In this document: one piece after another, positions 3,499 to 58,458 of the stretch
Numbering within the stretch: the stretch's first letter is position 1
Layout: each line of letters starts with the position of its first letter
NCBI GenBank assembly: GCA_030654225.1
Contig: JAURXY010000026.1
Span: 10,448-74,447 of the forward strand
DNA: 64,000 nt
DNA from: a bacterium
Lineage (GTDB): Bacteria > Patescibacteriota > Minisyncoccia > Moranbacterales > UBA2206
Direction of reading: 5' to 3'
Translations under genes and position numbers: made by a program
The notes under the pieces: model-generated
Databases searched by the model: none
What the model was told of the DNA's origin: nothing
The model's input: only the letters and a program-made list of their open reading frames with translations

Positions 3499-3554
3499 TA
3501 TTTGTTAGATAATATGTTAAGTAACATTTTATAAATAATTAATTATATAAAAAT

Positions 3555-16484: not shown

Positions 16485-16488
16485 AATC

Positions 16489-16575
16489 TTTACTAATTAC
16501 GAATTAAGTACGAATATACTAATAAAAAATTCGTACATTCGTATATTAGTAAATGATTAATAATTCGTAAAGACA
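16489..16575. repeat. TACGAAT/ATTCGTA palindromic intergenic repeat, copy a
   Basis: about 85 percent identical to 48968-49047; imperfect palindrome. Confidence 0.7.
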
Positions 16576-21695: not shown

Positions 21696-21777
21696 GATTT
21701 ATTGGGGGAAAGGGGGGTAGAATGGAAGTGTTAAGTAAAGTGTTAAGTAACAAGTTCAGTAACATAAATATAAACAT

Positions 21778-24507: not shown

Positions 24508-24810
24508 ATAATTGACGCAGGATATTATTTTGTTATAATTCTATTATACCGAAAAAAAACCGAACTAGCAAAAGCGAGTTATCCACAGCACGACCCTTTG
24601 AATATTTTAAGTAAAACTAATTTTTTGTTCAGCGACATGCTAAGTAACACTTTTTTTATTAGAACTGGTTCTTGGAAAGCTTGTCGGGAATAGGGTATAG
24701 AATAAGCAACAGCTATTGACATAATAAACTCAATCAATTAAGATTATTTTACTGGGTAATTTCGAAACCCTAGTCGTTTCGTTTTTTTAATTTAATGATT
24801 TTTATTTTAT

Positions 24811-25230: not shown

Positions 25231-25354
25231 TTGAAAATCTTTACGAATTACTAATCAAATACTAATATACGAATAATATTTATAAGTTGAGAGAATTTTT
25301 TTAGTTTACATTAGTATATTCGTACTTAATTCGTAATTAGTAAAGAATAAGTTT

Positions 25355-25822
25355 ATGGCAAGAAGAAAAAGAATTTATCAAAAAAATACTAAACCTGATC
25401 CAAAGTATAACAACATACTAGTTGGAAAATTTATGGTGAGCATCATGGAAAGCGGAAAGAAAACTATTGCAGAAAAAATAATGTATGATTCTTTTGATAT
25501 CATTCACGAAAGAACAAAAAAGGGTGGTTTGAATATTTTTGAACAAGCTATTAAGAATGTTTCTCCTTTGGTGGAATTGAAATCCCGCCGAGTTGGAGGT
25601 GCTAACTATCAGGTGCCTGTTCCCGTAGCAGGAGACAGAAGAACAACTTTGGCTATTCGTTGGTTAAAAGTAGCTATTAATGCGAAAAAAGGCAAGAAAA
25701 TGGCAGAAAAATTGGCTGATGAACTAATTGATGCTTCCAACAAAATTGGCGGAGCTATGAAAAAACGAGAAGATGTTCATCGAATGGCTGATGCTAATAA
25801 GGCTTTTGCGCACTTCGCTTAA
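25355..25822 (+). CDS. rpsG: 30S ribosomal protein S7
   Basis: family match, 155 aa. Confidence 0.95.
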   Translation: MARRKRIYQKNTKPDPKYNNILVGKFMVSIMESGKKTIAEKIMYDSFDIIHERTKKGGLNIFEQAIKNVSPLVELKSRRVGGANYQVPVPVAGDRRTTLAIRWLKVAINAKKGKKMAEKLADELIDASNKIGGAMKKREDVHRMADANKAFAHFA

Positions 25823-25924
25823 TTTACGAAAGTACGAATCTGGCGAAATTACGAATTCGTATTTTCGTTTAATTCGTATATTCGTAAATTATAAATAAAA
25901 TTAAGAAAGTAAAAATCAAATTAT

Positions 25925-28015
25925 ATGGCTCGAGAATACCCAATCGAAAAATATCGCAATATCGGAATTATCGCTCATATTGATGCTGGAAAAACCACCA
26001 CCACGGAGCGTGTTTTGTTTTATACCGGTATCACTCACAAAATTGGTGAAGTGCATGAAGGCGCTGCAACGATGGACTGGATGGAACAAGAAAAAGAACG
26101 AGGAATTACCATCACTTCAGCCGCGACAACTTGTTTTTGGAAAGATCATCAAATTAATATTATCGATACTCCGGGACATGTGGACTTTACCGTGGAAGTG
26201 GAAAGATCGCTTCGTGTTTTGGACGGTGGTGTGGTAGTTTTTGATGGCAAGGAAGGTGTGGAACCACAATCAGAAACAGTTTGGCGACAAGCAGAAAAAT
26301 ATAAGGTGCCGAGAATTTGTTTTATCAATAAAATTGACAAAGAAGGTGCTGATTTTTATTACGCTCTAAAAACTATTTGGGACAGACTTACTCCAAACGC
26401 GGTAGCTGTGCAACTTCCGATTGGAGAGCGAGGAGATTTTTCTGGCGTGGTGGATTTGATTAAAATGAAAGCTTATACTTTTTCTGGAGAGATGGGAGAA
26501 ATTGTCAATGAAGAAGAAGTTCCAGCTGACATGCTCGAAAAATCCAAAGAGTGGCGAGAAAAAATGGTAGAAAAAATTTCTGAAACTGATGACGCGCTCA
26601 CAGAAAAATTTTTAAACGGTGAAGAAATTTCGCAAGCGGAACTAAAATCGGCTCTTCGCAAAGGAGTCAACGCCGTGACGCTCGTTCCAGTTTTCACAGG
26701 CACTGCTCTTCGAAACAAGGGAGTGCAATTAGTGCTAGATGCGGTAGTGGATTATCTGCCATCCCCAATTGATGTTCCAGCAATCAAAGCAACGGAAGTT
26801 GATGATGAAACTAAAGAAGTAGCCATTAAATATGATGACAGCGCTCCTTTTTCTGCTTTGGCTTTCAAAGTAGCTACTGATCCATTTGTCGGTCAACTAA
26901 CTTTCTTTAGAGTCTATAGCGGAATGCTCAAAGCCGGTTCTTATGTTTTGAATTCTTCTAAAGGAGAAAAAGAAAGAGTGGGCCGAATTCTGCGAATGCA
27001 TGCTAATCATCGAGAAGAAATTGACGAAATTTATACTGGAGGAATCGGAGCGCTTGTTGGAATGAAAAATACTACTACAGGAGACACTTTGTGTGATCCA
27101 GAAAATCCAGTTTTACTGGAAAAAATAACTTTTCCAGAACCAGTTATCTCAATCGCCGTGGAACCAAAAACTAAAGCTGATCAAGAAAAGATGGGAATGG
27201 CTCTTAGAAAATTAGCCGAAGAAGATCCAACTTTCAAAATTAGAACTGATGAAGAAACGGCTCAGACTATTATCTCCGGAATGGGCGAATTACATCTCGA
27301 TATTATCGTGGATCGAATGAAAAGAGAATTCAAAGTTGAAGCTAATATCGGTCAGCCACAAGTAGCTTATCGAGAAACAATTAAATCCAACGCCCAAGCG
27401 GAAGGAAAATATATCAAACAATCAGGTGGACGCGGACAATATGGCCACTGTTGGATCAAAGTGGAACCGCAAGAAGCTGGCAAAGGATTTGAATTCGTGG
27501 ATGAAATCAAGGGTGGCTCTATCCCGCAAGAATATATTGCTCCGATTGGCAAAGGAATCAAAGAGGCGATGGACAACGGAGTTTTGGCGGGGTATCCAAT
27601 GGTGGACATCAAGGCCACTGTATATGACGGATCTTTTCATGATGTTGACTCCTCAGAGGCAGCCTTTAGAATCGCTGGTTCAATGGCTTTCAAAGAAGCT
27701 TCTCGTCGGGCCAACCCAATTATCATGGAACCGATTATGAAAGTAGTGGTGACGACCCCAGAGAATTTTATGGGGGATGTGGTGGGAGATTTGAACTCCA
27801 AGCGAGGTATCATCAAAGAAATGAATGATCGCGGAGAAGGCAATGCGCGAGTAAAAGAAATTGACGCCGAAGCCCCACTTTCTTCAATGTTTGGTTATGC
27901 CACTCAACTTCGCTCAATGACCCAAGGTCGCGCCAACTATGTGATGGAATTTTCCCACTACGCCGAAGTGCCGAAGAATGTGGCGGAAGGAATTATTAGT
28001 GGGGATAAGAAATAA
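25925..28015 (+). CDS. fusA: elongation factor G
   Basis: G-domain [17 protein letters not shown]; 696 aa. Confidence 0.95.
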
Positions 28016-28024
28016 AATATAGGA

Positions 28025-28070
28025 AACAAATTTAAATTCAGTAGAGACGAGGCACTGCCTCGTCTTTTTC
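28025..28070 (+). terminator. fusA terminator / REP-like hairpin (copy 1 of 46-bp direct repeat)
   Basis: GTAGAGACGAGGCACTGCCTCGTCTTTTT; near-identical at 29026-29072. Confidence 0.75.
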
Positions 28071-28364: not shown

Positions 28365-29014
28365 AATATAATTTTAGTATTATACCTGCAAAAACAAAAA
28401 AAGCGTTTGTTTTTTTGTCTGGACAAAATTGGCTTAGCGAAAGCGGATGGTATTTGGCTGGTGGAACTGCGCTGGCATTGCAAACAGGGAATCGCAAGTC
28501 AGTGGATTTGGATTTTTTTACCGTAGAAAAAGATTTTGATAAATCAGAATTGCTTGAAAATTTTTCAGAAAATAAAGAATGGAAAACTACCCTAAATAGA
28601 AAAAATACCGTTTATGGCGAACTGTCTAAGGCCAAAATAAGTTTTATCGCTTATCCTTTTTTTGTTCCTAAACAAGAATTTATCCAATATGGTTCGATTA
28701 AAATTTTGCAACCGCGCGATATTGCCGTAATGAAAATTATCGCCATTTCACAACGCGGACGCAAGCGTGATTTTTTTGATCTGTATTGGTGTGCAAAAAA
28801 TGTGGAATCATTAGAAGATTTGATAATAAGATTGAAAGTGCAATATCCTTTTGTGGCACACGATTATCATCATATTTTGAAAAGTTTAGTTTATTTTCAA
28901 GACGCAGAAAATGATCCACTGCCAGATATCACTTTTAAGGCGGATTGGAAAGAAATTAAGGATTATTTTAAAAAAGAAATTTTACGCATTACCAAAAAAA
29001 TAATCTTAAAATAG
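28337..29014 (+). CDS. nucleotidyltransferase AbiEii/AbiGii-family toxin (DUF1814)
   Basis: LAGGTALALQTGNRKSVDLDFF signature. Confidence 0.75.
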   Translation: MDNASRKQIEYNFSIIPAKTKKAFVFLSGQNWLSESGWYLAGGTALALQTGNRKSVDLDFFTVEKDFDKSELLENFSENKEWKTTLNRKNTVYGELSKAKISFIAYPFFVPKQEFIQYGSIKILQPRDIAVMKIIAISQRGRKRDFFDLYWCAKNVESLEDLIIRLKVQYPFVAHDYHHILKSLVYFQDAENDPLPDITFKADWKEIKDYFKKEILRITKKIILK

Positions 29015-29025
29015 AAAAAGCATTA

Positions 29026-29072
29026 AACAAATTTAAATTCCGTAGAGACGAGGCACTGCCTCGTCTTTTTTG
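29026..29072 (+). terminator. REP-like terminator hairpin (copy 2 of direct repeat)
   Basis: same hairpin and flanks as 28025-28070. Confidence 0.7.
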
Positions 29073-29805: not shown

Positions 29806-29833
29806 GTAGAGACGCAAAATTTTGCGTCTCTAC
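29806..29833. repeat. 28-bp perfect palindrome GTAGAGACGCAAAATTTTGCGTCTCTAC (REP-like), copy 1, 25 bp upstream of RAYT gene
   Basis: exact copies at 30147-30174 and 54579-54606. Confidence 0.9.
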
Positions 29834-29858
29834 GATGTGATATAATACAAAAATAAAA

Positions 29859-30416
29859 ATGTCAGAATTATTCAAAAACAAATACACAATTAAATCATCC
29901 AGATTATCAAATTATGATTATTCTCAAAATGGAATGTACTTCGTTACGATTTGCACGAAAGACAAGGAATATTTTTTTGGGGAGGTGAAAAATGGGGGAA
30001 TGGTGTTGAATGATGTGGGGAAAATGGCAGATAAATATTGGCGCGAAATTCCAGCGCATTTTCCATTTGTAAGATTAGATGAATTTGTTGTAATGCCCAA
30101 TCATGTGCATGGGATTGTGGAAATTGCAAAAAACATTGATGCTAGCGTAGAGACGCAAAATTTTGCGTCTCTACAGGGCGAAAGGGGAAATAAATTTGGT
30201 CCACAATCAAAAAATTTAGCCTCTATAATTCGTGGTTTTAAGGTGGGGGTAAAAAAATATACAACAAAAAATGAAATTTATTTCCAATGGCAACCCCGTT
30301 ATTACGACCAAATAATTCGAAACGAAATTTCCCTAAACAAAATTCGTGAATATATCCAAATTAATCCGCAGATGTGGGAAAGAGATAAAAACAGTTTAGA
30401 AAATATATTTATGTAA
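29859..30416 (+). CDS. REP-associated tyrosine transposase (RAYT) / IS200-like HuH transposase
   Basis: HuH motif MPNHVHGIV; C-terminal EYIQINP and RYYDQ Tyr region; contains in-frame REP copy 2. Confidence 0.7.
   Translation: MSELFKNKYTIKSSRLSNYDYSQNGMYFVTICTKDKEYFFGEVKNGGMVLNDVGKMADKYWREIPAHFPFVRLDEFVVMPNHVHGIVEIAKNIDASVETQNFASLQGERGNKFGPQSKNLASIIRGFKVGVKKYTTKNEIYFQWQPRYYDQIIRNEISLNKIREYIQINPQMWERDKNSLENIFM
30147..30174. repeat. REP-like 28-bp palindrome copy 2, in-frame inside RAYT ORF (encodes SVETQNFASLQ)
   Basis: exact palindrome. Confidence 0.9.
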
Positions 30417-39569: not shown

Positions 39570-40115
39570 ATGTCAAAGATTGGAAAAAAAATAATAGCTA
39601 TACCACAAGGAATCGAGGTCAAGCTCGACGGTGAAAAATTGGAAGTCAAGGGACCAAAAGGTACTTTGAATTTGGAAATTAATCGACAAATCAAAGTAGA
39701 GGTCACTGACGGAGAAATGAAATTTTCCCGCACAAGGAACACGAAAGAAGCTAATGCTCTTTGGGGGCTCACGCGAGCACTAGTGAATAATATGATTATT
39801 GGTGCTAAAGATGGATATGAAAAGAAACTGGAACTGCAAGGAGTGGGCTTTCGAATGGCTTTGCAAGGAAAGAAATTGGTAATGGCACTGGGTTTTTCAC
39901 ATCCAGTGGAAGCCGAGATTCCAGAAGGACTAACGGTTAAAATTGAAGATAATAATGTCCTCTCAATTTCTGGATTTGATAAACAAAAAGTTGGGCAATT
40001 TGCAGCTAATATCAGAGCCCTAAAAGAAGTCGAACCATATAAGGGTAAGGGTTTTAGATATCAAGGAGAAAAAGTTAGAAGAAAAGTCGGCAAGAAAGCC
40101 GGCGCCGTAAAGTAA
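39570..40115 (+). CDS. rplF: 50S ribosomal protein L6
   Basis: family match. Confidence 0.95.
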   Translation: MSKIGKKIIAIPQGIEVKLDGEKLEVKGPKGTLNLEINRQIKVEVTDGEMKFSRTRNTKEANALWGLTRALVNNMIIGAKDGYEKKLELQGVGFRMALQGKKLVMALGFSHPVEAEIPEGLTVKIEDNNVLSISGFDKQKVGQFAANIRALKEVEPYKGKGFRYQGEKVRRKVGKKAGAVK

Positions 40116-40192
40116 AATTTACGAAAGTACGAATTAAACTAAATTACGAATTCGTATTTTCGCTCGATTAGTAATTTCGTAAATGAAAAACA

Positions 40193-40540
40193 ATGAAAAA
40201 TAGTAGAAACAATTTAAGATTACATCGAAAAAAGCGAATAAAAGCTAAGATTAAGGGTGACGCAAAAAGACCACGCTTAGCAGTTTTCAAAAGTCTCACG
40301 GGCATATCTGCTCAGGTTATTGATGATGAGAAATCAACTACAATAGTTTCGGCGTATCTCAAAGAAATAAAGCAAGCTAAAAATGATATCGAAGGCGCAA
40401 AAAATATTGGAATTTTGATAGCTAAAAAATGCTTAGAGAAAAAGATTAGCGAAATTGTATATGACAGAAGTGGTTATAAATATCATGGAAAAATAAAAGC
40501 GCTAGCGCAGGGAGCTAGAGAGGGCGGACTAAAATTCTAA
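40193..40540 (+). CDS. rplR: 50S ribosomal protein L18
   Basis: family match. Confidence 0.9.
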   Translation: MKNSRNNLRLHRKKRIKAKIKGDAKRPRLAVFKSLTGISAQVIDDEKSTTIVSAYLKEIKQAKNDIEGAKNIGILIAKKCLEKKISEIVYDRSGYKYHGKIKALAQGAREGGLKF

Positions 40541-44342: not shown

Positions 44343-44462
44343 GTCATTCCCGCGAAGGCGGGAATCTAGTGTAGAAGCTAAATAAAAAAGAATAGATTAT
44401 ATAAAAAGATTGGTTATTTTAAAATAAACTTAAGACTAGATCCCCGCATCCGCGGGGATGAC
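44343..44462. mobile_element. MITE-like element A1 (28-bp TIRs GTCATTCCCGCGAAGGCGGGAATCTAGT / ACTAGATCCCCGCATCCGCGGGGATGAC)
   Basis: imperfect terminal inverted repeats, each itself a hairpin; AT-rich core; second copy at 54342-54435. Confidence 0.65.
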
Positions 44463-48938: not shown

Positions 48939-48967
48939 TTTGAAGATATAAATATAAATTAATTTTT

Positions 48968-49047
48968 ACTAATTACTAATTTTATACGAATATACTAATA
49001 AAAAATTTGTACATTCGTATATTAGTAAGTGATTAGTAATTCGTAAA
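48968..49047. repeat. TACGAAT/ATTCGTA palindromic intergenic repeat, copy h
   Basis: about 85 percent identical to 16489-16575. Confidence 0.7.
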
Positions 49048-49050
49048 GTT

Positions 49051-52863: not shown

Positions 52864-53085
52864 ATGCAGTATGTTTATGTCTTGAAAAGTAAAAAAGATA
52901 ATAAAAATTATGTAGGTTATACTAAAAATTTAAAATTAAGATTTGAGCAACATAACAAAGGACTGGTGCTTTCTACTAAAAATAGAATACCACTAAGTCT
53001 TATATATTATGAAGCTTGCCTAAATCAACAAGATGCTACTAAAAGAGAAAAGTATCTAAAACTATTTACGGCAAGCGATATATAA
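52864..53085 (+). CDS. GIY-YIG nuclease family small protein (YhbQ-like)
   Basis: YVYVLKS ... YVGYT ... RFEQH ... KRE motifs. Confidence 0.7.
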   Translation: MQYVYVLKSKKDNKNYVGYTKNLKLRFEQHNKGLVLSTKNRIPLSLIYYEACLNQQDATKREKYLKLFTASDI

Positions 53086-53324: not shown

Positions 53325-54354
53325 GAAAATCATAAAAAGTATTTGGGAGAAAGCACAAAAAATTAATCGATCACTTCGATTTATGGAACTTTGTGGAACG
53401 CATTCAGAAAGTATTGCTAAACATGGGATAAAAAATATTTTACCAAAAAATATAAAACTCATTACCGGACCTGGCTGTCCGGTTTGCGTCACTGATCAAA
53501 GTGAAATTGATATTGTCACGGGACTAGCGCTCGCTGGAATTCCAATTGCTTGCTATGGAGACGCCACTAACATTCCTGGAAGTTTAGGTAGCTTGGAAAA
53601 TGCTCGGCAAAATGGTGCGCAAGTTTTCATTGTTTATGATGTGGCAGAAGCCATTGAAATTTCCAAAAAAATTTCCAATTTGGTTTTTTGGGGAATTGGT
53701 TTTGAAACAACCACTTCGATGACAGCATGGGGGATTAAAAACAATCTTACAGTTTTTTCTTCCCACAAACTTTTTCCGCCAGCTATGGAAGCGTTGATGG
53801 CAAACAAAAAAATTAGAGTTGATGGCTTTATCAATCCGGGTCATGTGAGTGCTATTATCGGAACGAAAGTTTATGAAAAATTCCAAATACCACAAGTGAT
53901 TGCTGGCTTTGGCGCAGAGGACGTTCTTCTGGCGATTGAAATGCTTTTGGATCAAATAATTTCTGGAGAAAAAAAAGTGGAAAATGAATATGCGAGACTG
54001 GTGAAAAAGGAAGGCAATATAAAAGCGAGAAAATTAATTTCAGAAGTTTTTGAAATCAGAAATGCTTCTTGGCGAGGTTTGGGAGAAATCAAAAATTCCG
54101 GATTGAAAATTCGAAAAAAATATCAGCATCTTGACGCTGAATTTATCCATCGAGATTTGATTGCGAAAATAAAAAAAGAAATTAAACCAAGAAAAAGTAT
54201 CTGTCGTTGTGGAGAAGTTTTGCAAGGATTGATTGAATCAAAGCAATGTAAATTATTTGGAAAATCTTGCACGCCTGACAATCCTCAAGGTGCTTGCATG
54301 GTTTCGAGGGAAGGGAGTTGTAATATTGAGTACAGATTTATGTCATTCCCGTGA
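53314..54354 (+). CDS. hypD: hydrogenase maturation factor HypD
   Basis: CGTHS ... GPGCPVC motifs; last 4 codons and stop lie inside MITE TIR. Confidence 0.85.
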   Translation: MESKKIIKSIWEKAQKINRSLRFMELCGTHSESIAKHGIKNILPKNIKLITGPGCPVCVTDQSEIDIVTGLALAGIPIACYGDATNIPGSLGSLENARQNGAQVFIVYDVAEAIEISKKISNLVFWGIGFETTTSMTAWGIKNNLTVFSSHKLFPPAMEALMANKKIRVDGFINPGHVSAIIGTKVYEKFQIPQVIAGFGAEDVLLAIEMLLDQIISGEKKVENEYARLVKKEGNIKARKLISEVFEIRNASWRGLGEIKNSGLKIRKKYQHLDAEFIHRDLIAKIKKEIKPRKSICRCGEVLQGLIESKQCKLFGKSCTPDNPQGACMVSREGSCNIEYRFMSFP

Positions 54355-54435
54355 AAACGGGAATCTAGTCATAAAAATGTTTTTATCGCGATAAATTTAA
54401 TTTCTACACTAGATCCCCGCATTCGCGAGGATGAC
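54342..54435. mobile_element. MITE-like element A2 (TIRs GTCATTCCCGTGAAAACGGGAATCTAGT / ACTAGATCCCCGCATTCGCGAGGATGAC)
   Basis: same architecture as 44343-44462; lies between hypD and hypE, overlapping the hypD stop. Confidence 0.65.
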
Positions 54436-54442
54436 AAACTTT

Positions 54443-55450
54443 ATGAATAAAATAATTGAATTAGAAATGGGCGGAGGAGGAAAAAAATCGGAAGAACTTA
54501 TTGGAAACATAAGGAAAATTTTGAATGTTCGTGGAAAATGGAAAAACACTAAGGATGATGGGGCGGTTTTTGACTTGAGTAGAGACGCAAAATTTTGCGT
54601 CTCTACGGGGGGTAATAAGTTGGTGTTTACCACCGATGCTTTTATTGTTGACCCACTGTTTTTTCCGGGAGGGGATATTGGAAAAATTGCGATTTGCGGA
54701 ACGTTAAATGATCTTTCGGTTATGGGCGCTAAGCCGATTGGAATTTCACTCAGTATTGTAATCGAAGAAGGATTTTTGCAAAACGATTTGGAAAAAATAA
54801 TTCAGTCTATAAATAAAATTTCGAAAGTTACAGGCGTTCCGATTGTGACGGGGGACACAAAGGTGACAGAAAAAGGCAAGATAGATAAAATTGAAATTAC
54901 CACTTCGGGAGTAGGGCTCGCTTCAAAAATAATTTCTAATGATGGCGCAAAAGTGGGGGATGATATAATCGTTTCTGGCGATCTTGGTGAGCACGCAGTA
55001 GCGCTTTTGGCCAAGAGATTTAACTATCAAACAAAAATAAAAAGCGATTGTCAACCGCTCATTGCCGAAATTCAAAGTGTAGCTAAATATCTTACTTCTT
55101 GCAAGGATCCAACGCGTGGCGGACTGTCCGCTGTGCTAAATGAAATGGCGGAAAAATCCAAAACTAAATTTGTTTTAGATGAAAAAAATTTACCATTTAA
55201 AAAAGAAACTGTGGCAATTTCAGAACTTCTTGGCATTGATTTTTTTTCTTTTCCATCAGAAGGAAGGTTTGTGGCGACAGTGGCGAGAAAAAATTCCAAG
55301 AGAGTTGTTGAAATTTTGAAAAAATATAATAAATCTGCTAGAATAATTGGAGAAGTGCAAAGGGGCAAAGAAGTTTGGCTGAAAACCAAAATTGGATCTG
55401 TCAAAAAAATTGAAGTGCCAAGAGGAAAATTAATTCCACGGATTTGCTAA
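54443..55450 (+). CDS. hypE: hydrogenase maturation factor HypE
   Basis: DPLFFPGGDIGKIAICGTLNDL; contains in-frame REP-like palindrome. Confidence 0.85.
   Translation: MNKIIELEMGGGGKKSEELIGNIRKILNVRGKWKNTKDDGAVFDLSRDAKFCVSTGGNKLVFTTDAFIVDPLFFPGGDIGKIAICGTLNDLSVMGAKPIGISLSIVIEEGFLQNDLEKIIQSINKISKVTGVPIVTGDTKVTEKGKIDKIEITTSGVGLASKIISNDGAKVGDDIIVSGDLGEHAVALLAKRFNYQTKIKSDCQPLIAEIQSVAKYLTSCKDPTRGGLSAVLNEMAEKSKTKFVLDEKNLPFKKETVAISELLGIDFFSFPSEGRFVATVARKNSKRVVEILKKYNKSARIIGEVQRGKEVWLKTKIGSVKKIEVPRGKLIPRIC
54579..54606. repeat. REP-like 28-bp palindrome copy 3, in-frame inside hypE (encodes RDAKFCVST)
   Basis: exact copy of 29806-29833. Confidence 0.9.
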
Positions 55451-56123: not shown

Positions 56124-57437
56124 TTATTTTCCCAAAAGATAATAAACGATTTGCCCAAAAGAAAGTCCGGCGTCGCCACGGGGTATATTTTTATTGGCAT
56201 AAGCTCCTTTAGAAATAAGATACTCGGAAATTATTTTATTATTGGCAATGCCGCCAGCGATAAAAATATTGTCATGAGCAAATGCAGGTTCAGGTATCTT
56301 GCCTGAACATTTTATTTCTGGAAAAATTTTATTTAAATTGCTAAATTTAAGTTTATCAGAACTTTGCGGTTTAATCGGGACGATTGAACCTGCATTATTA
56401 TAGCATTTTAGTTTTATTATTTTATACAAGCCATTGACTATATAAAGTTGAGCAGTGGCGGCAAGACGATGCTTATCTTTTTTATGTAAGTATTTAATTA
56501 CGTAATTAAATAAATAAGTAGTATCTAAAATATATTCATCTTCCGAAATTGTTATTTTTGGTTTTAAATCAGAATAAGGTTTAGCTGAATTTTTTTCTAG
56601 TAAATCAATGGGTTCATGCTTGTATTTTCGGGCATTCCCACAAAAACCTAAAAGTAAAGAAACAGCATCCAAAACTCTTCCAGCGCTAGAAGTTTCGAGG
56701 CAATTGAAATTTTGTTGAAGCTGATTATATATAAGTTCAAATTCGTTTTTGGTGTAGAATTTTTTGACGAAATTATAAATATTTTTTTTGTGTTGTATCT
56801 CGCCCTTACCCTCTCCTGTCGCGAGTACGCGACATCCTCTCCCAAAGGGAGAGGAGGAATCTGAAAAAAGTTTATATAAAACTCCAATGAGCATTCTGGC
56901 TGGCTCTCGTACAGCCAAATCCCCACCAACCATAACCTGATTTTCCAAATGCCCAATTCGTTTTACGCTTTCTACTTTATTCTTTCTACTTTCTACTTGA
57001 AAGATTTCTCCGCCCCAAATTTTTTCATCTACTCCAAAACCAGTACCATCTATAGCGATTCCATAAAAAGTAGAAGGTAGTAAGTAGGAAGTATTATGCA
57101 AAATTTTGTCTCCAATAGAAGAAAATATGTGAGCGAGGTGATGTTGAATAAAAAGGTGTTTCACTTTATATTTTTTGGCGAGTTTCTCTCCCCAAATAGT
57201 GGTTTTATATAGCGGATGAAGGTCAGTGAGAATTATTTGCGGTTTAATTTTTTGTTTTTTCAAATATTGCAAAACTTCTTTTTGATACCTTTCCCAATTT
57301 TCTTCTTCCAATAAATCCCCAAAATCATCCGAAAAAAATATTTTTCCATCACGAAAAACCGAAAAATTCCCAGCCGATTCAGCGCCGAGAGCTAAAATGG
57401 ATATATTTCTTTTGTATCCAAGGGAAATTGTTTGCAT
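56124..57437 (-). CDS. hypF: HypF C-terminal (Kae1/TsaD-like carbamoyltransferase) domain protein; lacks acylphosphatase, Zn-finger and YrdC domains
   Basis: LALGAESAGNFSV, TDLHP, QHHLAHI, IAIDGTGFGVDEKIWGGE; start trimmed to MQTISLGYK. Confidence 0.75.
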   Translation of the reverse strand: MQTISLGYKRNISILALGAESAGNFSVFRDGKIFFSDDFGDLLEEENWERYQKEVLQYLKKQKIKPQIILTDLHPLYKTTIWGEKLAKKYKVKHLFIQHHLAHIFSSIGDKILHNTSYLLPSTFYGIAIDGTGFGVDEKIWGGEIFQVESRKNKVESVKRIGHLENQVMVGGDLAVREPARMLIGVLYKLFSDSSSPFGRGCRVLATGEGKGEIQHKKNIYNFVKKFYTKNEFELIYNQLQQNFNCLETSSAGRVLDAVSLLLGFCGNARKYKHEPIDLLEKNSAKPYSDLKPKITISEDEYILDTTYLFNYVIKYLHKKDKHRLAATAQLYIVNGLYKIIKLKCYNNAGSIVPIKPQSSDKLKFSNLNKIFPEIKCSGKIPEPAFAHDNIFIAGGIANNKIISEYLISKGAYANKNIPRGDAGLSFGQIVYYLLGK

Positions 57438-57498
57438 ATATGTGATTTCAGTATATAATATTATTAGGATAAAATAAACAATAAAAACAAAATAATAA

Positions 57499-58458
57499 AT
57501 GAATATATTTTCTGTATACAATAACCCAATCCCTTCTATCGCTATAGTAGCAATCGCTATTTTGGGCTATCTATTATTTAGATTTTCAAGAAATAAATCA
57601 GGCAAAATTTTCACGGCCACACCTATCATAAATAGTTTTTCAAAAGACATTACTGATTTAGCTAGGAAAAACCAACTTGATCCAGTCATTGGTCGAGAAA
57701 AAGAAATAAACCATCTCATTATGGTTTTGAGTCGCAGGACTAAAAACAATGCTGTGCTCATCGGGGATGCTGGTGTTGGGAAAACTGCGATCGTAGAAGG
57801 TTTGGCGCATAATGTTTCGCAGAAAAATGTTCCTGCAAGTCTTTTTGGCAAAAGAGTTTTGATGCTTGATCTCAACGCTCTTTTAGCTGGTACGAAATAT
57901 CGGGGCGAGTTCGAAGAAAGAGTAAGGAAGCTCACTGATGAAATATCTAACTCAAAAAGAAAAATAATTCTTTTTATTGATGAAATACATAATCTTATTC
58001 AAGCCGAAAGTTCAGGGGAGTCAGTTTCAGTAGGGGATATTTTCAAACCGGCAATGGCTAGGGGAGAACTGCAAATAGTTGGCGCCACAACCAAGGAAGA
58101 ATATGATCAATATTTTCATACGGACTTAGCTTTCAAAAGAAGAATGCAACCAATTTTTGTGAAAGAGCCGAGCAAAAAAGATACTTTTGAAATTCTTAAG
58201 GGTGTAAAATCAAAATATGAATCTTTTCATAATGTCAGAATTTCCGAAAAAGTCATCAGGGCTTGCATAGAACAATCAGAAAAAATGTTGCCTGGACGAT
58301 CCTTTCCGGATAAGGCGATAGATTTAATGGATGAAGCATCTAGCAAAGCTAGAATGGGATGTATCAACAATAAATCGAAAAAATGTAAAATTATTCCAGA
58401 AGTGAAAATAACAGATGTAGCTCAAATTGCCAAAGAATATCGAGAGGTAAAAAGATAG
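57499..58458 (+). CDS. ClpA/ClpB-type AAA+ NBD1-only protein with N-terminal TM helix
   Basis: DPVIGREKEINHL, Walker A GDAGVGKTAI, Walker B ILFIDEIH; no second NBD. Confidence 0.65.
   Translation: MNIFSVYNNPIPSIAIVAIAILGYLLFRFSRNKSGKIFTATPIINSFSKDITDLARKNQLDPVIGREKEINHLIMVLSRRTKNNAVLIGDAGVGKTAIVEGLAHNVSQKNVPASLFGKRVLMLDLNALLAGTKYRGEFEERVRKLTDEISNSKRKIILFIDEIHNLIQAESSGESVSVGDIFKPAMARGELQIVGATTKEEYDQYFHTDLAFKRRMQPIFVKEPSKKDTFEILKGVKSKYESFHNVRISEKVIRACIEQSEKMLPGRSFPDKAIDLMDEASSKARMGCINNKSKKCKIIPEVKITDVAQIAKEYREVKR

Follow-up and report, generated by a model that had tools for sequence, protein, structure and literature searches.

The 64,000 nucleotides analysed here (contig JAURXY010000026.1 of a patescibacterial genome, positions 10,448 to 74,447; hereafter the window) raise the question of how one perfect palindrome of 28 nt, GTAGAGACGCAAAATTTTGCGTCTCTAC, came to lie in front of a transposase gene, inside that gene, and inside hypE, a gene for a hydrogenase maturation protein. 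Exactly three copies were found (Table 1). When up to three mismatches were allowed, no further match appeared in the window, and the chance expectation, estimated from 100 dinucleotide-preserving shuffles, was zero matches. Our analysis supports the identification of the 185-aa transposase as a REP-associated HuH/Tyr transposase (RAYT, also called TnpAREP; REP, repetitive extragenic palindrome) and of the palindrome as a GTAG-tagged REP. It likewise supports the view that both intragenic copies are in-frame insertions at the DNA level, rather than coding sequence that is palindromic by coincidence.

The element consists of a GTAG foot, AGACGCAAAATTTTGCGTCT and a CTAC foot, that is, a "double-foot" REP, and its general form was GTAGAGACG-N10-CGTCTCTAC. 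As single-stranded DNA (ssDNA), the upstream copy was predicted to form a stem of 12 bp and a loop of 4 nt (-12.1 kcal/mol, z = -7.4). Two of its three phases are free of stop codons and the third contains a TAG stop; because the element is a palindrome, the opposite strand is also stop-free in two of three frames. In the open reading frame (ORF) of the RAYT, the copy is read as V97-ETQNFAS-L105 between S96 and Q106, and the hypE copy uses the other stop-free frame, giving (S)RDAKFCVST. The protein segments spanning the two inserts are DASVETQNFASLQGER and FDLSRDAKFCVSTGGNK, respectively. A first, sequence-only reading of this DNA had claimed that a perfect palindrome precedes the RAYT and that identical copies sit inside the RAYT and hypE without breaking the frames. 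Indeed, all three copies matched exactly, and both ORFs were unbroken and of full length compared with their homologues. The upstream copy ends 25 nt before the ATG of the RAYT and the second copy lies inside the gene, whereas none was found downstream at up to three mismatches. The window appears to contain the gene itself once, and dispersal is confined to the hairpin.

The same reading had assigned the transposase to the REP-associated HuH tyrosine type, and this was confirmed by matches to Y1_Tnp and REP_Tyr_transpos, by the HuH, WQ and Tyr motifs, and by the fold. The match to Pfam Y1_Tnp fell exactly at the cut-off (23 bits). When the protein was aligned with 38 homologues (39 sequences), N81 and H84 of the HuH motif M79-P-N-H82-V-H84-G were invariant and H82 was conserved in at least 90%. 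W144-Q145 was invariant or nearly so, and Y165 and N169 of the catalytic-tyrosine motif Y165-I-Q-I-N169-P were invariant. An AlphaFold2 (AF2) model of the protein (predicted local distance difference test (pLDDT) 80.4, predicted template modelling score 0.77) placed the HuH motif on strand 82-89. The top Foldseek match of this model was 4ER8_A, the Escherichia coli TnpAREP in complex with a REP hairpin (E 6.1e-7, template modelling scores 0.56/0.62), and TnpA proteins of the IS200/IS605 insertion sequences occupied ranks 2-30. Sequence similarity to E. coli TnpAREP was marginal (E 0.17); in the alignment with 4ER8, the HuH motif fell on HMH, and the GTAG-binding segment WQPRF..xIRN and the motif YIxINP (YIYINP in E. 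coli) superposed. Residues 96-115, comprising the REP peptide and the next ten residues, had a pLDDT below 50 and lay between strand 82-89 and helix 120-137; on the DNA, the in-gene copy starts 51 nt beyond the base that opens codon P80 (of PNHVH). The closest RAYT homologues bearing a source name were mostly from the Patescibacteria group. Between the window gene and four relatives from the candidate phyla radiation (CPR), the nonsynonymous divergence (dN) was 0.2-0.29 and the synonymous divergence (dS) was above 1, i.e., saturated, giving a dN/dS of approximately 0.1-0.2. This therefore indicates that the RAYT gene is under purifying selection.

A promoter scan from the upstream REP to the ATG of the RAYT detected no two-hexamer promoter. 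By eye, TGATATAAT, an extended -10-like sequence, is seen at 29838-29846 directly after the upstream REP. We make no regulatory claim from it, because the distance from the REP to the start codon varies among the CPR relatives. Two single-foot GTAG hairpins were also found 0.8 and 1.8 kb upstream of the RAYT.

The distribution of the in-gene palindrome was determined in 85 loci, namely 80 loci selected by protein patterns that do not contain the segment (L001-L080), four CPR relatives selected by protein identity (L205-L208), and the window. A perfect in-gene palindrome was present in 65 of the 85 loci (76%), across many phyla, and it generally followed the HuH codons at a distance of a few tens to about 150 nt. 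A GT[AG]G foot was recognisable in 45 in-gene palindromes from 41 loci; 33 of them were in phase 0, 12 in phase 1 and none in the phase with the TAG stop. The read-through peptides were VETQNFASL, VETLHATSL, VETRRGASL and VGTRHGVSL in phase 0, and RDVACNVST, RDAMHCVST and RDAVNRVST in phase 1. Several RAYT genes contained two to four tandem copies (L005, L006, L016, L024 and L058), and in L005, L016, L024 and L058 decayed copies were found beside one perfect copy. The other 20 homologues had no in-gene copy, and 13 of them kept flanking REPs; in such insert-free members (L012, L013, L025, L026, L030 and L031), the loop was shorter and the flanking REPs were still present. The CPR relatives had two to three copies of the 28-mer per locus of 17-20 kb. 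In L205, L207 and L208, a REP lies just upstream of the RAYT gene as in the window, and the pair of upstream and in-gene REPs, 324-410 nt apart, recurs in all four. The in-gene REP of the RAYT is a subclass-wide feature, rather than a lineage-specific insertion.

We compared the conservation of the DNA with that of the encoded peptide. VETQNFASL was encoded by the identical 27 nt in all carriers selected by protein (L001, L006, L008, L015, L205-L208 and the window), whereas the truly conserved motifs PNHVHGI, DHIIRN and QSKNLAS showed 26-49% variation at third positions. The third-position test pooled loci chosen by the exact 28-mer and is biased in this respect; the invariance of the palindrome rests on L001-L080 and L205-L208. 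All 28 positions of the REP were identical between the window RAYT and the four CPR relatives despite the dS above 1, and one REP variant was identical from CPR to Bacteroidota and Gammaproteobacteria. Furthermore, 57 of 71 double-foot elements in 1.4 Mb of loci were perfect palindromes, with 24 different centres that were always symmetric, and 12 of the 14 imperfect elements were mismatched only at central (apical) positions. The variation is therefore compensatory, as in a hairpin. Because the 28-mer is identical at all synonymous sites across phyla in genes that are synonymously saturated, the conserved entity is the DNA hairpin, not the encoded peptide.

The sequence-only reading had reserved a coincidental palindrome for the case that unrelated taxa show the same residues without the palindromic DNA; in unrelated phyla, VETQNFASL was always encoded by the identical palindromic DNA. 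The converse explanation, in which VETQNFASL would be conserved as a functional peptide motif and its DNA would be palindromic only incidentally, has next to no likelihood. It agrees with the conservation of V97, E98, T99 and Q100 in at least 90% of the 38 closest homologues, but a single DNA sequence underlies every occurrence while the third positions of true motifs vary, and in other lineages translation runs through the palindrome in a different frame (RD..VST). Moreover, the same DNA occurs upstream of the RAYT and in unrelated genes, the segment is disordered in the AF2 model, and homologues without the segment exist. The peptide-motif reading was thus rejected by the codon and frame tests.

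A metagenome scan for the 28-mer gave at least 120 stretches, and 132 copies among those listed. Among these 132 copies, 11 were in RAYT genes, 10 were within 400 nt of a RAYT gene, and 35, some of them RAYT copies, were deep in ORFs, defined as stop-free ORFs of 200 aa or more with the copy no closer than 40 codons to either end. This criterion replaced a looser class (a stop-free stretch of at least 120 codons), which overestimates intragenic copies. In four cases, the interrupted gene was confirmed by Pfam, namely as CheA, UvrC, a CCA-adding enzyme and an Eco57I-type methylase; one further metagenome ORF with the 28-mer gave no Pfam match. The CPR relatives contained extra copies inside ORFs at L206:4992 and L207:5099. 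No common target sequence was evident at the three insertion sites of the window or among the metagenomic flanks of the 28-mer. As a separate observation, the UvrC ORF of the metagenome locus L112 contained, in addition to the GTAG REP (VETQNFASL), the peptide GVIPAKAGILQ, similar to what the GTCATTCCCG...CGGGAATC family would give when read through, and segments of the PLGKGG/PSSGRRG type. It appears that this one protein contains read-through from several repeat families.

The second host gene, hypE, lies in the context hypC-hypD-hypE. The start annotated by NCBI is probably 54443, because P0121, a homologue 100% identical to the window HypE, has 335 aa. The protein consists of AIRS and AIRS_C domains, and its C-terminal PRIC is intact and invariant in the alignment. 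Of 27 close HypE homologues aligned, 12 had no residues between DDGAVFDL and GKEKLVFTTDAF, where the window HypE and P0122 (91% identical) have GRDAKFCVST. On the DNA, the empty site is GAT TTG GGA AAA GAA AAA (site sequence GTTTTTGATTTGGGAAAAGAAAAA) and the filled site is GA(C/T) TT(G/A) (A/G)-28-mer-G GGG...; filling thus adds 30 nt net (A + 28 + G), equivalent to 10 codons. The hypE of P0132 had a REP variant with the centre AATTAATT, which was still a perfect palindrome. The AF2 model of HypE was poor (pLDDT 67); hence, the insert was placed by alignment to the solved structure of Thermococcus kodakarensis HypE (2Z1E), in which DDGATIPF is directly followed by GDKHIVFTID, gap-free against the empty form. 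By this alignment, the insert is expected to lie in the loop between two conserved segments, which we take as the first β-hairpin turn of the N-terminal domain.

Compared with the 91%-identical orthologue carrying the same insert, the window hypE showed a proportion of synonymous differences (pS) of 0.51, a dN/dS of approximately 0.07, and no difference in the 28 positions of the REP. The gene is under purifying selection. The identity of the 28-mer reflects either a hairpin that is constrained or homogenised, or two recent independent insertions. The sequence-only reading had asked whether the residues in HypE and the RAYT are lineage-specific insertions. This holds for the hypE copy, since 49 of the 120 closest HypE homologues have an empty site, and not for the RAYT, where 65 of 85 homologues possess the in-gene copy.

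These 49 homologues had a minimal 8-residue linker, and about 68 of the 120 (~57%) had an insert at the same place. In related CPR genomes, at least four different hairpin elements were found in the turn (window 54573-54612; L202:10140, L203 and L209-L212). They were the GTAG double-foot REP in two variants (window and L202; L203), CCCTTCTCCTTATAAAGGAGAAGGG (L209) and its close variant CCCTCTCCTTAAAAAGGAGAGGG (L211), which are CCCT(T/C)CTCC...GGAG(A/G)AGGG hairpins, as well as, in L210, a GTGG...CCAC hairpin of 39 nt whose stem has 18 bp. Some of the proteins, such as P0198, had two elements in tandem. Because at least four different elements are found there, the HypE turn is a recurrent landing site; the density reflects either targeting or merely a very permissive loop. 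A second and smaller insertion-prone site was observed near the C-terminus of HypE (columns ~313-335 of alignment A2), with the repeat-like peptides GPARHASQSDAG, RSASSADKG, PSSAKAMAG and PPAGG (P0127, P0131, P0134 and P0228). The window HypE had no insert at this C-terminal variable site in alignment A2.

Quentin et al. (2018; PMC6006769; BMC Genomics 19:475) divided the TnpAREP proteins into subclasses. In their description, subclass 2.4 has the motifs NH[IFV]H, WQ and YIxNNP and a mean length of 194 aa, occurs in Cyanobacteria, Bacteroidetes and various other phyla, and equals RAYT Group 4 of Bertels 2017. Its "double-foot" REPs start with GT[AG]G at the 5' end and finish with C[TC]AC at the 3' end, and its hallmark is the presence of in-frame REPs inside tnpAREP, in the interval between the HuH and Tyr motifs, in the variable peripheral β3-αC region. 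The window RAYT resembles this subclass in its NHVH, WQ and Tyr motifs and its length of 185 aa, in its double-foot REP with the in-gene copy in frame in the β3-αC loop, and in the low REP copy number and the wide, patchy phylogenetic spread. It differs from the subclass as published in that its host is a Patescibacteria/CPR genome, that the flanking copy is upstream only in the window, and that its Tyr motif is YIQINP instead of YIxNNP (I for N at position 4). Because the window gene shares the features of subclass 2.4 that were compared, bar this one residue of the Tyr motif, the phenomenon of a REP in frame in its own RAYT gene is already published; the instance in Patescibacteria is new. 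The copy inside the transposase gene, which the sequence-only reading had called particularly odd, accordingly corresponds to the published distinguishing feature of subclass 2.4. The cross-phylum invariance of one 28-mer and the two reading phases, both quantified here, were not found in the portions of Quentin et al. (2018) drawn on here.

The sequence-only reading had also held that intragenic palindromes are known for Rickettsia palindromic elements (RPEs) but are unusual. The first part is in agreement with Di Nocera et al. (2013; PMC3733652), who, citing Ogata 2000, describe such elements in frame in functional genes. The same paper reports GTAG/CGTC REPs within ORFs in several species. 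It also reports different REPs at approximately the same site once, in Xanthomonas recB. Like these intragenic REPs and the Rickettsia elements, the copies in the window are short palindromes in frame and are read as extra loop residues. These published cases are mostly in genes for DNA replication and repair from Proteobacteria, Rickettsia and Opitutus, whereas the host gene here is hypE of a CPR genome, and the HypE turn carries at least four distinct elements across close relatives, a higher density than in the recB case. Classical RPE-1 elements are about 100-150 bp long, and we know of no RAYT associated with them.

The window RAYT shares with E. coli TnpAREP the fold, the aligned HuH and WQPRF..xIRN, and a REP with a GTAG foot and a hairpin. 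E. coli REPs, however, are imperfect, bulged, single-foot and extragenic elements present in hundreds of copies, and the E. coli TnpAREP gene contains no REP. The TnpA proteins of IS200/IS605 (IS608 and ISDra2) have the same HuH/Y1 fold and recognise subterminal hairpins on ssDNA; in these elements, unlike in the system described here, the transposase is enclosed by two different hairpin ends and the whole moves as one unit. String searches of the literature for GTAGAGACG and for the read-through peptides gave unrelated primer matches or none.

Taken together, these findings are most probably explained by a subclass 2.4 REPtron in a CPR genome, in which the RAYT processes an ssDNA hairpin, seeding is rare, and in-frame copies in surface loops survive. 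By homology to E. coli TnpAREP, the RAYT would recognise its cognate 28-nt double-foot hairpin (5' GTAG, 12-14 bp stem, CTAC 3') on ssDNA, cut it and rejoin it, and copies would be seeded rarely and in low numbers around the chromosome. Insertions of net 3n length in surface loops would be read through and survive, because the element is stop-free in two of three frames. The β3-αC loop of the RAYT and the HypE turn would be such tolerant places, and the 9-10 encoded residues, predicted to be disordered, would be passenger peptides. The hairpin may stay perfect because recognition by the RAYT is selected for, or because copies are continually re-inserted or homogenised (by conversion); turnover is favoured because of the decayed tandem copies. 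We infer the catalysis and mobilisation by the window RAYT, as well as the tolerance of the inserts by the RAYT and HypE proteins.

Several points weigh against this explanation. To our knowledge, no subclass 2.4 enzyme has been assayed, and we know of no demonstration of REP mobilisation in vivo even for E. coli TnpAREP. The score of the RAYT against NCBIfam REP_Tyr_transpos (NF047646; 57.3 bits, E 1.6e-15) is below the equivalog cut-off of 80. The perfection of the in-gene copies across phyla exceeds what neutral passengers would predict, and selection on the hairpin or turnover needs to be added. Furthermore, the window has only three copies in 64 kb, two of them intragenic, with none downstream of the RAYT and no inverted doublets of the 28-mer in the 64 kb, whereas classical REPs exceed 100 copies and classical REP/REPIN families comprise tens to hundreds of mostly extragenic copies with inverted doublets. 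For this RAYT group (Group 4), Bertels 2017 gives only ~14 associated 16-mers and modest repeat numbers.

We also considered whether selection maintains the in-gene REP as a cis-acting element, instead of its being carried as a tolerated passenger, which we regard as rather unlikely. In one version, the RAYT may regulate itself by binding this hairpin in the ssDNA or mRNA of its own gene, or the stable mRNA hairpin may throttle translation; in another, the in-gene and upstream copies may be the two "ends" needed by the enzyme. The absence of any synonymous change in the 28-mer despite a dS above 1 between RAYT orthologues, the occupation of the same loop in 76% of homologues from many phyla, and the folding of the RNA context at -27 kcal/mol (z = -4.4) are in line with this idea, as is the recurrence of the upstream and in-gene pair in L205, L207, L208 and the window. 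Yet 20 of the 85 homologues lack the in-gene copy, 13 of which keep flanking REPs, and the arrays of decayed copies beside a perfect one (L005, L016, L024 and L058) resemble birth and death by repeated insertion. In addition, frame and copy number vary, and the hypE copy is equally perfect although it cannot regulate the RAYT. That the insertions inactivated their hosts, so that the RAYT, hypE or both are pseudogenes keeping an open frame, is very improbable. A 10-aa insert between the Asp-bearing strands of the HypE N-terminal domain and the poor AF2 model of HypE would fit such a loss. Against it, the dN/dS of hypE is ~0.07 relative to the orthologue with the same insert and PRIC is intact, ~68 of the 120 closest HypE homologues carry an insert at the site within intact hypCDE operons, and the RAYT has a dN/dS of ~0.1-0.2 with all catalytic residues intact.

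Two broader readings, in one of which the RAYT-REP system would have the in-gene REP as a selected cis element and in the other of which the hypE turn of Moranbacteria-like CPR would be a genuinely targeted landing pad, are possibilities that we hold only tentatively and consider doubtful. If true, the selected cis element would explain the invariance of the 28-mer at every synonymous site across phyla, and the targeted pad would imply that hairpin elements seek out a particular DNA context, or hairpins already in place, beyond filtering by protein tolerance. The instance described here extends a published curiosity, REPs in frame in their own RAYT gene, to the ultra-small genomes of Patescibacteria. 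For annotation, VETQNFASL, RDAKFCVST and similar peptides in thousands of predicted proteins are to be read as REP read-through, not as motifs. The cross-phylum identity of the REP and the HypE loop also provide concrete systems for studying target choice and the function of in-gene copies.

Table 1 Positions of the REP copies, their host genes and other repeats in the window.
Feature	Position	Strand	Basis
Upstream "double-foot" REP, GTAG...CTAC palindrome	29806..29833	.	Exact match; 25 nt before the RAYT ATG (29859)
RAYT/TnpAREP gene, 185 aa, subclass 2.4	29859..30416	+	Family matches, motifs, fold
In-gene REP of the RAYT, reads VETQNFASL	30147..30174	.	Exact match; loop between the HuH β-strand and the next helix
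hypE, hydrogenase maturation protein HypE, 339-aa ORF	54431..55450	+	TIGR02124, 343 bits against a cut-off of 251.6
REP copy within hypE, reads RDAKFCVST	54579..54606	.	Exact match; putative first β-hairpin turn, N-terminal domain
Single-foot GTAG hairpin GTAGAGACGAGGCACTGCCTCGTCT with T-run	28041..28069	+	Terminator scan match; ssDNA fold -10 kcal/mol
Second copy of the single-foot GTAG hairpin	29042..29070	+	Repeat comparison
AT-rich TACGAAT/ATTCGTA repeats	16485-16572, 48961-49048, 25238-25353, 25819-25898, 40113-40193		Repeat comparison
TGTT(A/C)AGTAAC...TGTTAAGTAACA motif	2349-2372, 2940-2963, 3503-3526, 21729-21764, 24626-24649		

The neighbourhood of hypE showed further features. A small GIY-YIG ORF lies directly upstream of hypC and is also found in the relatives L202 and L210 (window 52864-53085 and 56124-57521, minus strand, with HypF). 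The HypF of the hyp cluster has 464 aa and comprises the Kae1-like C-terminal domains only; no acylphosphatase, zinc-finger or YrdC part was detected in it.

Other repeats were also observed in the window, in which Rfam and tRNA scans gave nothing related to the REP, the RAYT or hypE. The single-foot GTAG hairpin has its first 9 nt in common with the REP and is terminator-like. Each of two 64-nt direct repeats (28006-28069 and 29007-29070; 86% identical) ends in this hairpin and a T-run, and together they bracket a cassette of ~1 kb, encoding DUF6922 and an AbiEii toxin, directly upstream of the RAYT region. The cassette may be an inserted toxin-antitoxin module, or the hairpins may be a second REP type used as a terminator. 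A second repeat family was formed by inverted doublets of GTCATTCCCG-NGAANN-CGGGAATCTAGT at 44343-44462 and 54342-54435, with the look of REPINs (REP doublets) or MITEs (miniature transposable elements with inverted repeats). One doublet is intergenic, and the other fills the hypD-hypE junction, overlapping the stop codon of hypD and the upstream alternative start of hypE. A third, MITE-like family consisted of AT-rich repeats of 75-90 nt that are built of TACGAAT/ATTCGTA units, internally palindromic and 82-95% identical. The motif TGTT(A/C)AGTAAC...TGTTAAGTAACA was seen at six places, three of which lie ~570-590 nt from one another, and looks like an operator or another binding site upstream of a repeated gene set. 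Finally, an exact 35-nt direct repeat was found at 2492-2526 and 2869-2903.

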